Of a stretch of DNA of 64,000 nt, positions 44,305-51,144 are shown one piece after another; positions within the stretch are counted from its first letter, which is position 1; the number at the start of each line of letters is the position of its first letter. The notes below the pieces were generated by a model, which did no database searches, was not told where the DNA came from, and worked only from the letters and a program-made list of their open reading frames with translations. Source of the DNA: an uncultured delta proteobacterium (GTDB lineage Bacteria; Desulfobacterota; Binatia; Binatales; Binataceae); contig CAWJET010000001.1 of the NCBI GenBank assembly GCA_963842085.1, positions 1,728,001 to 1,792,000 on the forward strand, in the 5' to 3' direction. Made by a program: the position numbers and the translations under genes.

Positions 44305-45315
44305 GTGCGCAAGGTGAAAGTTGGCTATCAGCTCGATTTCCGCAATCCACCCGGCTCGACGCTGTCGTTTCGCGACCTCTACCGCGAATCGCTCGCGCAG
44401 GTTGAGGCCGCCGAGCAGCTCGGCTTCGATTCCATCTGGCTCACCGAGCATCACTTTACCGACGACGGCTACCTGCCCGCGCTGATGCCCGCGGCGGCTG
44501 CGATCGCGGCGCGCACGACGCGCGTCACCATCGGCACCTACGTCCTGCTGGCGCCGTTTTTTCATCCGCTGAAGCTGGCGGAGGAGGCGGCCTTCGTCGA
44601 CGTAGTCTCGGGCGGTCGGCTTAGGCTGGGAATCGGTCTCGGTTATCGCGCCGAGGAGTTCGAGGGCTTCGGCGTGCCGCGCGCCCAGCGACTCGGTCGC
44701 ACGCTCGAGACCATCGAAATTCTCAAGCACGCGTGGACCGGCGAGCGATTCAGCTTCGACGGTAAATATTTCAAGTTCCGCGACGTGCGCGTGCTGCCGC
44801 GACCTGTAAGCCAGCCGCATCCCGAACTCCTGTGGGGCGCAGGCGCGGCCAAGTCGATTCGGCGCGCGGCCGAGCTCGATCTCGGGTTCGCATGCGTCGG
44901 CGGCCGCCGGGAAATCGGCATCTATCTCGAGGCGCTCAAGGCCGCGGGCAAGGACGTCGCGCGCTATAGCATCGTCAACAGCCGCGTAGTTTACGTCGCC
45001 GACAGCGAGGAGCAGGCGTGGCGCGACACGCGCGACGCGCTCATGTACCAGGCCGAGCTCTACGGGAAATGGCTCTCTGCCGCGGCAGGCACCACCGACC
45101 AGAGCAAGGTGCTGATTCGTCCTGACCCCGAGCGTCTCAGACGCACCAGCGTGCTGGGAACGGCCTCCGATGTCGCCGCGCGGCTCGGCGAAATACTCGA
45201 ATCGACCCCGATGACCGAGCTTATCGTCGTGACGCAGTTGCCGGGGCTCGATCCCGCCAAGGCGCGCCGCTCGCTCGACAGGTTCGGCGCCGAAATCCTG
45301 CCGCGTCTCAGGTAG
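44305..45315 (+). CDS. LLM-class flavin-dependent oxidoreductase
   Basis: GFDSIWLTEHH, HPLKLAEE, SGGRLRLGIGLGYR. Confidence 0.93.
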   Translation: MRKVKVGYQLDFRNPPGSTLSFRDLYRESLAQVEAAEQLGFDSIWLTEHHFTDDGYLPALMPAAAAIAARTTRVTIGTYVLLAPFFHPLKLAEEAAFVDVVSGGRLRLGIGLGYRAEEFEGFGVPRAQRLGRTLETIEILKHAWTGERFSFDGKYFKFRDVRVLPRPVSQPHPELLWGAGAAKSIRRAAELDLGFACVGGRREIGIYLEALKAAGKDVARYSIVNSRVVYVADSEEQAWRDTRDALMYQAELYGKWLSAAAGTTDQSKVLIRPDPERLRRTSVLGTASDVAARLGEILESTPMTELIVVTQLPGLDPAKARRSLDRFGAEILPRLR

Positions 45316-45379: not shown

Positions 45380-47695
45380 TCACGGCAGGTCTGGCGAGAT
45401 TGTGGCAATCGACTCTCTCATGGCTTTTAGCTGGTTGAAGATTCCCAGCAGCTTCGTGCGATCGCGATGCTTGCCGGCCTTTTGCAACTCGACCTGGAGG
45501 TTCTGCGCCTGGGTCTGAACGGTGAGGTAATCGTCCGGCACGGCCACGTGCGCTCCCGCAATGACGCGGTCAACGTCGCCAAGATCCGAGGTGCAGTTGA
45601 GGACCGGTACTGTAATGGGCAAGCCGGCATCAATTCGATTGATGGAATCGTCCACCAGCCGCTCGCAATCGGCGATGCTGTATACAGTGCTCAACGCGCG
45701 CAGGAAGAAGCCGATCTGATTCAATACCTGCTGCGTGTCGCCGCCAGTATAAGTGCTGGCCAGGTTGGTCAGCGACAAAGCTCCGCAACCCGTCCCACCA
45801 GGGCAGCCTCTGCCTCTTGGGGGAGCAGAGGGAAACCCGGCGTCTAGAGACTCGTCGAAGGCGGTGGTGAAGTAGAACGACGCGGCGTCCTCGATATTGG
45901 TGGCGATTCCGCTGTCGTGGAAGAACGCATTCTTGCGAGGGGCTTCGATGATCGACTGGATGTTAAAATCGCCCTGAAACGCCCCCTGATCCTGGGGGAT
46001 CACGACCGGGGAAACCACCTCATTTAGCGGAAGCGAGCCACCGGGGCCCGAAAAACCGGCAAACGGATCGCCAACTTCCCTCAAGGCATCCGTGTTAGTG
46101 CTGGTGATGAAGTTTCTTCCTGCTTTGCTTAGCCGCTGACTGGCGATTCCAAGATTGAGCCAGGTGATTTCGTTATCTACCACCGTGTCTCCGATCACGG
46201 TTGGCCAAGCCGGCTCGACCGCGCCGGAGGTTCCAACGGCACCGGCGCTGCTGGTGTAGGCGAGGAAGAGATACGGATTGGTCGCATCGGTCGGCGTTAC
46301 GACGCCCCATCGCGAATTGTTCGGCGAGCCGATTGCCGGGACGTAGGTTTGACCGGGCTGCCATGTCGTCGCGACATTTTCCGGGCTGACGACCAGAGCT
46401 GGCGCTAAGGCGGGTTCTCCGCGAATGCCATCGGCAGTAGCCTGCGCCCCGCCGTTGAAATGGCAGAGATTACAGCTCGCACGGCTGTCGAGAAAGATTG
46501 CCTTGCCCGTCTCCGCAACAGCGTCGTTGAAGGTGATTACGCTTTGCGAGAATGAAGTCTGAGTTCCGTTCCTGCCTGTGGCGAAAGCGCTGGCCGAGAA
46601 CTGCGCGCCCGTGCAAATCGCCGAGGGAGCCGAGTTGGAACAGAGCGCGAGTTCGAATTGGCGGCCTAGGTATTCCTGGAATGCTGCCATCGCGTCGAGT
46701 TCGGCGGCAGTTGGGCATCGAAAATCGGGGCCGGGAACCCGGTTCAGGCTGCGCGTAAAATGTTTGCGGACCGCGCCAAGTGAAAATGTCCGGAGCGCAA
46801 GCGTGAGATCGGTCGGACGCGCCGCAAACTCATTGATCGCGTCAACGCAGTCGGCGTTCTTCGGAGAATTGGCAATTATCGACGGATCGATCAGGGCACC
46901 GTCTCCACCCCATCCAAGTTCAATATCCCGGGTGCCGTCGTCGGCGACGCCTCCTCCGATAGCTGCACCCGGACAAGGTGCAGCAACTATCATGAAGCCG
47001 CCGCTGCCTGTGCCCGAGGTCACCGACGCGAAAGTGAACTGCGTCGCCGAGAGCACGCCGGAGGCTGTAGTAGGCGCGATCAGGCCAGTTACCGTTGCGG
47101 TCGCATTGAATCCATCAATCGAATTGTTTTCGAATGAGATTGTCTCTCCTTCGAAAAGCTCCATGGGTTCGATCATCGTCACGGTAGCAGTCGCACCGTC
47201 GCCCGTGATCGAGGAAACCACCCCGGAATTCACGCAGAGGTTCGAGGTCGTAAACGCCAAACCTCCGAGCGCCATCGAAGCCCGGAGCGGACCTTCGGGG
47301 TTGTTGACGTTGCCCGGGGGTCCGTTCGCGATGTTGAACAACGTTAGCTTCTGAACTGTCGTCGGGTTTTCAAGATTCGGGTTCTTAGTCGCCAGAACCA
47401 GGTTCCTGTCGTGAGCACTCATCGAGGCGAGGTCCGAGGGAGCCAGGCCGTAGTCGTGCTCGGGTATATGGCAGGTCTTGCAGGTGCGGCCGTTGCCGTT
47501 GAATGTTTCCTGGGTGAAAAGCTTGAATCCCTTATCGATCAGCTTTGCGCCCTTTACGTCAAATGCCGACGCGGTCGGCGAGCCAGCCAACCCCCATGCC
47601 AGCAGTGCCAAGGCATGGATTGTGAGGGTTGACCGCCAGGTGCTTTGTCTTGCGACTCGCTTGCGGCAGGAAATCAGCCGGTGCTGCAGTTTCAT
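45380..47695 (-). CDS. secreted di-heme c-type cytochrome (CCP/MauG-like architecture) with inserted domains
   Basis: GGGAGG RBS, signal peptide, ETFNGNGRTCKTCH and CNLCHFNGG heme motifs, AFFHD. Confidence 0.8.
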   Translation of the reverse strand: MKLQHRLISCRKRVARQSTWRSTLTIHALALLAWGLAGSPTASAFDVKGAKLIDKGFKLFTQETFNGNGRTCKTCHIPEHDYGLAPSDLASMSAHDRNLVLATKNPNLENPTTVQKLTLFNIANGPPGNVNNPEGPLRASMALGGLAFTTSNLCVNSGVVSSITGDGATATVTMIEPMELFEGETISFENNSIDGFNATATVTGLIAPTTASGVLSATQFTFASVTSGTGSGGFMIVAAPCPGAAIGGGVADDGTRDIELGWGGDGALIDPSIIANSPKNADCVDAINEFAARPTDLTLALRTFSLGAVRKHFTRSLNRVPGPDFRCPTAAELDAMAAFQEYLGRQFELALCSNSAPSAICTGAQFSASAFATGRNGTQTSFSQSVITFNDAVAETGKAIFLDSRASCNLCHFNGGAQATADGIRGEPALAPALVVSPENVATTWQPGQTYVPAIGSPNNSRWGVVTPTDATNPYLFLAYTSSAGAVGTSGAVEPAWPTVIGDTVVDNEITWLNLGIASQRLSKAGRNFITSTNTDALREVGDPFAGFSGPGGSLPLNEVVSPVVIPQDQGAFQGDFNIQSIIEAPRKNAFFHDSGIATNIEDAASFYFTTAFDESLDAGFPSAPPRGRGCPGGTGCGALSLTNLASTYTGGDTQQVLNQIGFFLRALSTVYSIADCERLVDDSINRIDAGLPITVPVLNCTSDLGDVDRVIAGAHVAVPDDYLTVQTQAQNLQVELQKAGKHRDRTKLLGIFNQLKAMRESIATISPDLP

Positions 47696-48200
47696 CGCAA
47701 ATCCTCCCGTTAAGACAAGCAGGCCAATCCGCACATTTGGACCGCAACGTAGTCGCCACTCGCCGGCGTGGCGGTCGCTCGACCGGGTTCGGCGCCGAAG
47801 TCCTGCCGCGTCTCAGGCAGCTTCGATTCCGGAAGAAGAAAACCCCGAGTTGATGGGGTTTTCGGTTCACACGACCAAGTTGATCCCGGTCCCCTTGGGA
47901 CAGTTGCCGGAAGATTCATCGCAGAAAACTATCGGTAGAGTCAATCGTTTTATTGAACCTACTTTAGATAACAATCGCATATCTCGCTATTTTGCATCTT
48001 AGACACTCATTGGCGGAGTGCATGATGTCGGCTCGTGACCTGAGGTTCGCACGCTTCATTGGCCCTCTTCCAATGAATATTGCGCGGGCACAAACGTCTC
48101 ATGCGGCGCAGCTAGCTCGTAACCAGCAGACGTTCCCGCCAGAGCGCGGCCCGGCGGCTGCGTTTGCCGAATGCTCCGGCGCCATCGTAGAGTGAGTTGC

Positions 48201-49049
48201 ATGCCGGTCGCATACATCCCCCGTACCCGCGAGCTCTACAGCGAGTTCACTCCCTACCGATGGGTCGAGAACGAATCCGCGCCGTTCACTCCGCTGACCA
48301 AGCCTATCGCCGAGTGCAGAGTCGCCATGATCAGTTCGGGCGGAATCATGTATCGCGATCAGCCGCGCTTCCATCGCGAAGACGCATCGTACCGCCGCAT
48401 CCCCGTTCACGCGCGCGCTGACGAACTCAGCGTGTGGCACTTCGGCTATCCCACTCGCGACGCCGAGCGCGACGTGAACTGCGTCTTCCCGCTCGCGCGG
48501 ATGCGTGAGCTCGAAGCGGCCGGCGTGATCGGCGAACTCGCCGACCCCGTGTTCAGCTTCATGGGCGGCATCTATTCGGCGCGGAAAGTCCGCGACGAAC
48601 TTGCGCCGCAAATCGTCGACGAGCTCAAGCGCGCCCACGCCGACGCCTTCTTCCTCGTCCCCGCATGACCCGTCTGCCATCAGTCCGTTGGACTGATCGC
48701 ACGCGCAGTCGAAGCAGCGGGAATTCCCACGCTCTCAATGACTTCGGCGCTCGACATCACTCAGTCGGTCAAGCCGCCGCGCGCGGTGTTCCTCAATTTC
48801 CCGCTCGGCCATCAGACTGGCCCGCCCGATCAACCCGAACTGCAACGCCGGATCGTTACCGACGCGATGCGCGCGTTCGAGACCATTACCGCTCCCGCGA
48901 CAATCGTCGAGCTGTCCTACGTCTGGGACGCCAACGATCGCTCGTGGGAAGAAATCGACTACACCAAGGGATGGATGCCGGCGCGTCCGTCGCGCGAAGC
49001 TGCCGACGCACTCGAAGTCGAGCGCCAGTCCAAATTCCGCCGCAGCTAG
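48201..49049 (+). CDS. selenoprotein of the proline/glycine/sarcosine/betaine reductase B (PrdB/GrdB-like) family; Sec at UGA 48666..48668
   Basis: ORFs 48171..48668 and 48738..49049 share a frame. Readthrough gives LVPA-U-PVCHQSVGLIARAVEAAGIPT..PPRAVFLNFPLGH. N-part has RVAMISSGG, DASYRRIP, DVNCVFPL, FSFMG. Confidence 0.88.
48679..48697 (+). promoter_or_regulatory. putative bacterial SECIS element
   Basis: Perfect 8-bp stem ATCAGTCC-GTT-GGACTGAT; G-starting apical loop 18 nt downstream of the UGA. Confidence 0.75.
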
Positions 49050-49139
49050 TTCCGCACTCCACATCTCGCACTTTGCGACCGGCGCGAGTAGTTTCATCCG
49101 AGCGGCCGCCGCGGCGCGGCAACCACACGGGGAGGCGCG

Positions 49140-49538
49140 ATGTATATGGTTGGATATCACGAACTCGAGATCGTAACGCTGCTGGCGTTGCTCGAATACT
49201 CGATACTAGGCGTGATGGTTGGACGCGCGCGGCTAACGTATGGCGTCGAGGCGCCTGCGACCACCGGCAATCCCGACTTCGAGCGCTACTTCCGCGTCCA
49301 TGTAAACACGCTCGAGAGTCTCATCGTTTTCATCCCCGCAGTGTGGATTTTCTCGCTGACGGTGAGCTACCACTTCGGCGTCGCACTCGGATTGCTGTTC
49401 GTAATCGCGCGCATTATCTACGCATCGGGCTACCTGAGTGCGGCGTCCAAGCGCGCACCGGGCGCGATCGCCACCGCGGTGATTAACGGCATCCTGGTGC
49501 TGGGCGCCCTGATCACAATCACAATCAAAGCACTGTAA
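49140..49538 (+). CDS. MAPEG family protein
   Basis: VGRARLTYGVEAPATTGNPDFERYFRVHVNTLE. Confidence 0.93.
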   Translation: MYMVGYHELEIVTLLALLEYSILGVMVGRARLTYGVEAPATTGNPDFERYFRVHVNTLESLIVFIPAVWIFSLTVSYHFGVALGLLFVIARIIYASGYLSAASKRAPGAIATAVINGILVLGALITITIKAL

Positions 49539-49700
49539 CTCGCGGAATCTGGAACTCGGTCAATTACCCGGCAACGGGCGAAGCAAAGAAGAGCCGGGAA
49601 TTCTTCCACCTTAACAAGTTCTAAAGTTCCTTCCGCTTTACCTCCTGCCCCCGCCACGGTTAAAGTTCTCTTTGATTCAATCATCGAGGAGAGTTCACTC

Positions 49701-50222
49701 ATGGCGGAAGAACGCAAAGGCGCCGTTACGATGCGGGGAAACCCGATGACCCTGGTGGGCCCCGAAATCAAGGTCGGACAAAAAGCACCCAACTTCACCG
49801 TCGTCGGCAAGGGGATGCAGCCGGCGACACTCGATCAATTCAAGGGCAAGGTCAAAATCATCACGACCGTGCCCTCGCTCGACACTCCCGTTTGCGACGC
49901 CGAAACGCGCCGCTTCAACGTCGAGGCGAGCAACTTGCCCGGCGACGTGCAGATTCTCTCGGTCTCGATGGACCTGCCGTTTGCGCAAGCACGATGGTGC
50001 GGCGCGGCCGGCGTGGACAAGGTCACCACGCTAAGCGACTGGCGCAGCGCTAACTTCGGCACCAGCTACGGCGCGTTGATCAAGGAACTGCATCTGCTGG
50101 CGCGAGCCGTCTTCGTCGTGGACAAGAACGACAACGTCACCTACGTCGAATACGTCAAGGAGATCGCCAACCAGCCCAACTTCGAGGCCGCGCTGGAAGC
50201 AGCCAAAAAAGCCGCCGCCTGA
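49701..50222 (+). CDS. tpx: thiol peroxidase (atypical 2-Cys peroxiredoxin)
   Basis: VPSLDTPVCD, SMDLPFAQARWCG, LLARAVFVVD. Confidence 0.96.
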   Translation: MAEERKGAVTMRGNPMTLVGPEIKVGQKAPNFTVVGKGMQPATLDQFKGKVKIITTVPSLDTPVCDAETRRFNVEASNLPGDVQILSVSMDLPFAQARWCGAAGVDKVTTLSDWRSANFGTSYGALIKELHLLARAVFVVDKNDNVTYVEYVKEIANQPNFEAALEAAKKAAA

Positions 50223-50364
50223 TCCCTCGTCCGTTATACGCGAGAGGCGGCCGACCGCCCGGCGGCCGGTAGGTGAAGGTTCTGCCGCCGCTGCACGAGG
50301 CTAATACAACCCGCGGGCGGACGTGTCATCGGCGCGTCCGCCCATGATAGATCTTCCTTTCTTC

Positions 50365-51144
50365 ATGCCAACTTCCGCACCCAATCACCACGCCTTCACC
50401 GACGCACTCAAGCGCGGCCTCTACGAGGCCATTTTTCGACGCCGCGACATCCGCGAGTTCATCGCCGATCCGATTCCCGACGAGGTGCTCGCGCGGGTGC
50501 TGGTCGCGGCCCACCATGCGGCCAGCGTCGGCTTCACGCAGCCGTGGGACTTCGTCGTCGTGCGCGACCCTGAGCGGCGCCGCCGTGTGAAGGAAGTGTT
50601 CGAAGCCGAGCGTCAGAAGAATGCGGCCCAGTTCAGCGGCGCGCGGCGCGAAAAATATCTCTCGCTCAAGCTCGAGGGCATCCTCGAAGCCCCGCTCAAC
50701 CTGATCGTCACCTGCAAGCCCGATCGCTTTGGCCCCGCCGTGCTCGGCAAGACCAGCATCCGCGACGTCGAGGTTTACTCGGCGTGCCTGGCGGTCGAAA
50801 ATCTGTGGCTCACCGCGCGCGCCGAAGGCCTCGGCATAGGATGGGTCAGTATCCTGCGCAACGACGCGCTCGCCGAAATTTTCGGCATCCCCGATGACGT
50901 CATTCCCATCGCCTATCTGTGCGTCGGCTACGTCCACGAATTTCCCGACCGCCCCATTCTCGCCAGTGCGGATTGGGCACAACGCCTGCCGCCGCGCTCG
51001 TTGATTCACTTCGATTCGTGGAACGACGCCGGCGAGCGCAACTCACCCGCCGCCGAGTCCCTGCTCAAAAAGATCGACGATCACTCCATCTGGATGTCGA
51101 TCTTCCCCGAAGATTCCCCGGACAAACCGCCCTCCCGCGAATGA
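50365..51144 (+). CDS. bluB: 5,6-dimethylbenzimidazole synthase
   Basis: RRRDIREF, AHHAASVGFTQPWDF, LKLEGILEAP, NLWLTARAEGLGIGWVS; start approximate. Confidence 0.92.
   Translation: MPTSAPNHHAFTDALKRGLYEAIFRRRDIREFIADPIPDEVLARVLVAAHHAASVGFTQPWDFVVVRDPERRRRVKEVFEAERQKNAAQFSGARREKYLSLKLEGILEAPLNLIVTCKPDRFGPAVLGKTSIRDVEVYSACLAVENLWLTARAEGLGIGWVSILRNDALAEIFGIPDDVIPIAYLCVGYVHEFPDRPILASADWAQRLPPRSLIHFDSWNDAGERNSPAAESLLKKIDDHSIWMSIFPEDSPDKPPSRE

Follow-up and report, generated by a model that had tools for sequence, protein, structure and literature searches.

A PrdB/GrdB-family selenoprotein gene with an in-frame UGA and a covarying SECIS-like hairpin, apparently stand-alone and apparently from Candidatus Binatus

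The stretch of DNA analysed here, 64,000 nucleotides long and referred to below as the window, carries on its forward strand a complete coding sequence for a predicted PrdB/GrdB-family selenoprotein of 282 residues (48201–49049), ending in a TAG stop at 49047–49049. The single internal stop in this frame is a TGA at 48666–48668, codon 156, which is predicted to encode selenocysteine (Sec) in the context LVPA-U-PVCHQSVG; translation of the window frame around it reads ...FFLVPA-U-PVCHQSVGLIAR.... Under translation table 11 the region instead yields two ORFs, 48171–48668 and 48738–49049, which lie in one common frame. This is the arrangement described in the original prediction, made from the window sequence, and readthrough of the TGA does give the one 282-residue protein that it proposed, with a U156-x-x-C159 motif. 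The codon for Cys159, the presumed resolving cysteine, is at 48675–48677 (+). ATG 48201 rather than the upstream ATG 48171 was taken as the conserved start, because the same-genus orthologs and the full-length homolog P0011 all begin MPV/MPI-xYI.

Upstream of the gene and on the same strand is a luciferase-like (LLM) oxidoreductase gene (44305–45315, +; Pfam PF00296, E 3.1e-61), while downstream there are genes for a MAPEG-family membrane protein (49140–49538, +; Pfam PF01124, E 5.8e-19) and the thiol peroxidase Tpx (49701–50222, +; NF001808, 214.7 bits against a cut-off of 123). The gene order of the genus is LLM oxidoreductase, PrdB-like gene, MAPEG, Tpx and BluB. Six same-genus orthologs have the LLM gene no more than 1.5 kb upstream; of the 17 same-genus loci searched, as far as their flanks reached, 16 have MAPEG 3' of the ortholog, and Tpx follows MAPEG at 15 same-genus ortholog loci. 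An LLM gene also lies directly upstream of a 50%-identical ortholog from another family (L083, in G035). Further along the window, the genes between 50323 and 55552 (+) comprise BluB, the aerobic 5,6-dimethylbenzimidazole synthase, two unrelated genes and then CobT and CobS; BluB, CobT and CobS belong to cobalamin lower ligand and nucleotide loop synthesis, and BluB follows Tpx in most same-genus loci. Between the LLM and selenoprotein genes is an ORF of 784 aa on the opposite strand (45380–47734, −) that has no Pfam, NCBIfam or PADLOC match. Its GC content is 57–61%, compared with 62–67% in the upstream LLM and SDR genes, it matched none of the ortholog loci, and it has the appearance of a genome-specific insertion. 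A scan of 47700–50400 for promoters and terminators gave counts at or below shuffle expectation and does not inform the operon boundaries.

Conservation of the TGA was examined in a set of 21 loci made up of the window, 17 same-genus orthologs (80–92% identity), two orthologs from other families (approximately 50%) and one paralog from the same genome (43–44%). The TGA falls in one common alignment column at all 21. Twenty more distant copies from the same class were fetched, of which 19 could be aligned, and each of the 19 has both the TGA in this column and the motif, giving a total of 40 out of 40 homologous loci; L063 (G034:C152), a long GrdB-like copy, had no tblastn match and was excluded from the column check. 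The loci that retain the TGA span 31–92% identity in a 35-row alignment, with L056, L061 and L062 lying outside it. In a six-frame search, 29 of 41 related genomes proved to carry the gene, and every match covering codon 156 contains a TGA. Similarly, when 121 genomes were drawn evenly across the phylum, 35 had a match at E≤1e-20, and all 47 matches at this threshold contain a TGA and none is stop-free, the column being checked only for those that were fetched. Two same-genus genomes, G008 and G014, hold three short N-terminal fragments, none of which reaches codon 156. Among these, G014:C6:3207665-3207884 corresponds to ortholog residues 1–70 in two frames and G008:C68:16639-16836 to residues 1–66, and they may be decayed copies or assembly breaks.

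Comparison with the 17 same-genus orthologs gave dN/dS values of 0.065–0.150 upstream and 0.089–0.227 downstream of the TGA, at dS of 0.35–1.05. The low ratios on both sides indicate that the two halves are translated in this frame and are under similar constraint. The first start codon downstream of the TGA is ATG 48738, and initiation there would leave residues 157–179 untranslated, a segment that includes PVCHQSVGLIAR, the block in which the family is most conserved. The original prediction had suggested that homologs should show either TGA or Cys at this column with conservation on both sides, and this is what was observed, with TGA at the 40 loci and Cys in the proteins P0011 and P0127.

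A search with the whole protein against a collection of 5.8 billion proteins shows how the gene has been annotated. Among the 120 matches listed, 119 are 155–211 aa in length with a query coverage of 55%, the value that termination at the TGA would give. P0003 and P0037, both examined directly, have the C-terminus ...LVPA and so stop exactly before it. That gene callers would truncate the protein at the UGA had been anticipated, and the coverage of 55% in 119 of the 120 listed matches bears this out. The source names of these fragments are 'D-proline reductase (dithiol) PrdB' or 'glycine/sarcosine/betaine reductase selenoprotein B family protein [Candidatus Binatus sp. / Binataceae]'. Residues 150–282 used as the query returned 10 matches only, and P0123 and P0126 are C-terminal fragments called from an internal Met. 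The description of the gene as a 'hidden' selenoprotein therefore applies to its annotation only, since the family itself has long been known as a selenoprotein.

The sole full-length protein among the matches listed for the whole-protein query, P0011 (291 aa, 54–56% identity), has Cys at the Sec column, as does the full-length P0127 (38–39% identity). Two other full-length proteins have a different residue, Ser in P0130 (39–40% identity) and Gly in P0131 (29% identity). Homologs with a non-Cys residue at this position had been named in advance as evidence against recoding; the only ones found are these two outliers, and the two closest full-length TGA-free homologs both have Cys. The Ser and Gly residues do indicate that the residue at the Sec column is not universal in the wider family, which counts against a universal catalytic role for it.

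Downstream of the UGA is a SECIS element (48675–48701, +) comprising an apical stem, a GUU loop and a lower helix of 3 bp. The apical stem pairs 48679–48686 with 48690–48697 in eight perfect base pairs, the loop occupies 48687–48689, 18 nt after the TGA, and the lower helix pairs 48675–48677 with 48699–48701. The original prediction was correct as to the 8-bp perfect stem and the loop starting with G, but the distance of 18 nt that it gave for the hairpin is that of the apical loop, the stem itself following the UGA after a 10-nt spacer. The folding energy of a 71-nt stretch is −29.6 kcal/mol, against a shuffle mean of −19.1 (z −3.06; 3 of 200 shuffles as stable), and that of the 48 nt from the UGA is −21.5 kcal/mol. 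The bacterial SECIS model as quoted in PMC13188914 has an apical loop of 3–9 nt and an upper stem of 4–16 bp (Fig. 2 legend), a G among the first two nucleotides of the loop (most often GG or GU), and a UGA-to-loop distance of 16–37 nt with a minimum free energy of −7.5 kcal/mol or lower. The element fits this model on all four counts (GUU, 8 bp, 18 nt and −21.5 kcal/mol), and the stem covaries, in agreement with the proposal of a SECIS-like hairpin. An Rfam scan of 48100–49200 at E≤10 returned no SECIS family, its sole match being a chance snoRNA on the other strand.

All 18 same-genus sequences share an identical 22-nt hairpin core, down to every synonymous site, despite dS of 0.35–1.05 elsewhere. 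Covariation was scored for the 8-bp apical stem and the 3-bp lower helix in 31 of the 40 sequences, after removal of eight same-genus rows identical to kept rows across the tested helix and of one exact duplicate. Across these 31 sequences, standard pairs occupy 91.8% of cells, compared with 26–35% when the 3' partner is slid by 1–3 columns, and five of the 11 pairs are altered on both sides (29 cells). The observed covariation score was reached by none of 500 column shuffles, and 26 of the 500 reached the observed number of pairs altered at both positions. Pair 15/31, for example, is U-A in 18 sequences, C-G in nine and G-C in two, and links the synonymous third base of a His codon with the first base of an Ile/Val codon; pair 19/27 is U-A in 17 and A-U in 12, and links the first base of a Ser/Thr codon with the synonymous third base of a Gly codon. 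The GU of the loop, which never varies, opens a Val codon that is likewise invariant, with much of the stem coding for the conserved HQSVGLI motif. Constraint on the protein thus accounts for some of the sequence conservation of the hairpin, and only the covarying positions provide clean evidence for RNA structure. Judged by sequence comparison, the hairpin is beyond chance, its real support being conservation together with covariation.

The genome from which the window derives (G000; 4.93 Mb in two contigs, 100% complete by marker genes) encodes the machinery that had been proposed as a check on recoding. Matches above the curated cut-offs were obtained for selA (558.5 bits), selB (367.5 bits), selD (379.7 bits) and tRNA-Sec (70.9 bits), the last of which was assigned the anticodon TCA by ARAGORN. 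The selD gene adjoins selB and itself carries one TGA, in frame within ...AAGUAGKLGP... (G000:C1:2099530-2102506; L010/L002), and would thus also encode a selenoprotein. The hairpin at the selD UGA is GGUCC-GGC-GGACC, with its loop 1 nt nearer to the UGA, and a GUCC-G..-GGAC core is common to this hairpin and that of the PrdB-like gene. TGA is also the ordinary terminal stop of orthologs L027, L032, L034, L041 and L042, which indicates that the code has not been reassigned.

Profile searches place the protein in the GRDB family. The Pfam model PF07355 matched with 44.7 bits against a gathering threshold of 22, over residues 23–153, the match being limited to this segment because the model ends at position 347. 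The PrdB model TIGR04483 aligned with residues 27–244, on both sides of the TGA, at 169.4 bits, which is below its equivalog cut-off of 300. The selenoprotein-B subfamily model TIGR01918 narrowly missed its cut-off (62.9 bits against 65.45), and the GrdB/GrdF/GrdH models matched with their C-terminal halves only, at 58–63 bits and approximately positions 211–433 of 431–435. For GrdB (TIGR01917) the match was confined to model positions 216–430, so that the protein lacks the full-length, two-part organisation of approximately 430 residues that characterises GrdB. Membership of the PrdB/GrdB family, on which the original prediction drew, is therefore upheld, whereas function as a PrdB or GrdB subunit is probably not, as no PrdA, GrdE or GrdA was found.

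An AlphaFold2 model built from a 35-sequence alignment has a pLDDT of 93.7 and a pTM of 0.92. In this model Sec156 is positioned between a strand (149–153) and the N-terminus of a helix (157–172). The junction between a strand and the N-terminus of a helix is the usual placement of a redox-active Cys or Sec. Position 156 is Cys or Sec in 33 of the 35 aligned sequences and position 159 is Cys in 28, Asp in five and Gly in two, while Pro157 is present in 33 and His160 in 32. Asp91, Pro97, Pro136, Ala167, Glu171, Arg194 and Gly207 are invariant across all 35. Neither a sequence search of PDB chains (E≤0.01) nor a Foldseek search of the PDB (E≤0.001) returned any match. Candidate structural relatives from a wide VIA-align search were rejected, the best (Z 8.8, rmsd 3.7, 140 aligned residues) falling within the background of Z 7–8; the top matches were LacI/periplasmic-binding-type and short-chain-dehydrogenase-type proteins and reflect only a generic three-layer α/β arrangement.

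Partners of a reductase complex were sought in the genome and around homologous genes. Neither PF09338 (PrdA/GrdE) nor PF04723 (GrdA) had a match in the 100% complete genome G000, while both were found in G034, a positive control from the same class, which has four PF09338 matches. PF09338 was also found in none of 24 same-genus genomes and in one of 41 relatives, while 29 of these 41 carry the selenoprotein gene; the absence of PrdA/GrdE is as seen by one Pfam model, which a very divergent pyruvoyl partner would escape. No partner family recurred among 127 neighbouring ORFs of 20 diverse homologs, the ORFs being defined by a crude longest-ORF heuristic by which small genes may be missed, and none recurred in the neighbourhoods of L041, L042 and L043. 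With PrdA, GrdE and GrdA not found and no recurring partner, we read the protein as a stand-alone selenol/thiol oxidoreductase.

It might be argued that the TGA is a real stop, separating two genes or marking a pseudogene inactivated by nonsense mutation, since table 11 does yield two ORFs and the databases do contain the 155-aa N-terminal piece and, in rare cases, C-terminal pieces whose start was placed at an internal Met. We give this almost no credence: the TGA is kept at 40 of 40 loci while dS reaches about 1, the downstream dN/dS of 0.089–0.227 shows the second half to be translated in frame, a restart at ATG 48738 would leave out PVCHQSVGLIAR, where conservation in the family is highest, and full-length Cys homologs occur as single proteins. 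Decoding of the UGA as a residue other than Sec, through a reassigned code or through near-cognate suppression by Trp, Gly or Cys, is just as hard to credit. Comparative data alone cannot tell which amino acid is inserted, but use of TGA as the terminal stop of five orthologs, a genome with a dedicated tRNA-Sec, selA, selB and selD, the occurrence in close homologs of Cys, the counterpart of Sec, rather than Trp or Gly, and a covarying hairpin at SECIS geometry 3' of the codon all speak for Sec. Recoding of the UGA as Sec is accordingly supported by the TGA column, the covarying SECIS, the Sec machinery and the Cys homologs.

A further alternative accepts Sec and holds that the protein is a genuine PrdB subunit, or the B subunit of a glycine, betaine or sarcosine reductase, acting in a Stickland-type complex in which Sec would attack the α-carbon of a substrate bound to the pyruvoyl partner. 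The best NCBIfam match of the protein is indeed the PrdB model TIGR04483, at 169.4 bits, the public fragments bear the name 'D-proline reductase (dithiol) PrdB', and U-x-x-C is the motif listed for PrdB in PMC2398784 and PMC13188914. Against this, that score is far under the equivalog value of 300 and the 62.9 bits for the subfamily model are just under 65.45; searches for PF09338 and PF04723 drew a blank in the 100% complete genome but succeeded in G034; PF09338 occurs in 0 of 24 same-genus genomes and no such gene is among the 127 ORFs near 20 homologs; and the local neighbourhood consists of LLM, MAPEG, Tpx and BluB. We regard a subunit of this kind as improbable, and a true D-proline or glycine reductase subunit is probably not what is encoded here.

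We are therefore highly confident in the reading that the gene encodes a 282-residue PrdB/GrdB-family (GRDB) selenoprotein, apparently stand-alone, with UGA 156 predicted to be decoded as Sec through SelB and the hairpin and most likely with Sec/Cys redox chemistry. In the mechanism that we propose, SelB with Sec-tRNA(Sec) would bind the intragenic hairpin, which starts 11 nt after the UGA, and deliver Sec to the ribosome. In the finished protein Sec156 would attack a substrate or a disulfide, Cys159 would then resolve what results by forming a selenenylsulfide with Sec156, and re-reduction would fall to a thiol system. The placement of Sec156 and Cys159 at the N-terminus of a helix following a β-strand, in an α/β fold, makes a selenol/thiol redox cycle the most likely chemistry, and by analogy with the family and its motif a Sec156/Cys159 selenenylsulfide cycle is what we would most likely expect. 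A clade of paralogs has Asp at the +3 position (U-P-L-D), so a U-x-x-C selenenylsulfide cannot be the general mechanism of the whole family.

The family to which the protein belongs is not new. In the Sargasso Sea survey the 'proline reductase PrdB' family is given as the third most abundant, with 42 Sec and 1 Cys forms (PMC1088965), the GOS survey lists 235 Sec and 110 Cys forms (PMC2398784, Table 2), and the table in PMC1794560 places the family in non-Stickland Deltaproteobacteria such as Anaeromyxobacter dehalogenans and Geobacter uraniumreducens. Reviews count PrdB among the most widespread bacterial selenoproteins (PMC9312934, PMC13188914), with a mass of about 26 kDa (PMC13188914). As described by Zhang, Gladyshev and co-workers (PMC1088965, PMC2398784, PMC1794560), the catalogued family has pfam07355 and UxxC in common with the window protein and shows no essential difference from it; the strong bias of that family towards Sec has its parallel in the phylum sample analysed here, with TGA in 47 of 47 matches. 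The sections of these three papers that treat the family do not set orphan forms apart from true PrdB, and Binatia go unmentioned in them. Given that the PrdB family has figured in catalogues of abundant selenoproteins since 2005, the window gene is a further member of it, apparently from Candidatus Binatus. There is no new mechanism to invoke, the family, the recoding of UGA as Sec and the geometry of the SECIS all being textbook knowledge.

Against individual characterised systems the differences are more marked. PrdB of Clostridium sticklandii and Clostridioides difficile (TIGR04483) resembles the window protein over residues 27–244, in length and in having Sec within UxxC, but the window protein scores 169.4 against the cut-off of 300, with no PrdA found in its genome and no prd operon around its gene. 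GrdB, GrdF and GrdH (TIGR01917/TIGR01918) are alike in their C-terminal half and have Sec at the equivalent site, whereas the window protein is without the N-terminal half, at 282 aa compared with approximately 430. The motif given for GrdB is UxxCxxC (PMC13188914), in contrast to UxxC-H-Q-S in the window protein, and the GrdB partners GrdA and GrdE are not found in the window genome, while a Grd-type set is present in G034. That apparently true glycine/proline-reductase-type gene set lies on contigs C246, C159, C152, C69 and C66 of G034 and comprises the four PF09338 matches, a GrdA gene with an in-frame TGA and, alongside, long GrdB-like copies with TGA. Its presence indicates that complex-type and orphan forms both exist within the class.

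On balance we favour, with some reserve, a broader view in which short PrdB-like proteins that occur without PrdA, GrdA and GrdE make up a separate, almost obligately Sec-dependent family of stand-alone reductases that is mislabelled 'D-proline reductase' and truncated in databases. Searches of the full-text literature for PrdB-like and GrdB-like proteins returned nothing relevant, only unrelated papers on Synergistota, and found no paper on selenocysteine in Binatia or selenoproteins in Binatota, although the supplementary tables of surveys may list closer sequences. On the evidence of the present gene, Binatia-class bacteria would use Sec. The 155-residue 'D-proline reductase PrdB' fragment deposited near-universally in this lineage loses the active site, and its name suggests Stickland metabolism, of which these genomes show no other sign; to recognise the gene as encoding a complete, stand-alone selenoprotein sets the gene model right and draws attention to a widespread, Sec-biased enzyme family. 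If the stand-alone reading is true, the setting of LLM, MAPEG and thiol peroxidase genes in Candidatus Binatus hints at a redox or detoxification role rather than fermentation, a weak hint that applies at the level of the genus.

The same genome also carries a second PrdB-like selenoprotein gene (G000:C1:748664-749407; L043 1501-2292, +), the paralog of 43–44% identity. It has the TGA in the common column within the motif U-P-L-D, and its hairpin differs by two compensatory pair changes. This copy lies just 3' of a tRNA-Ser(GCT) gene and a phage-type integrase, with a rhodanese-like ORF next to it, and may therefore lie at the boundary of an integrated element.
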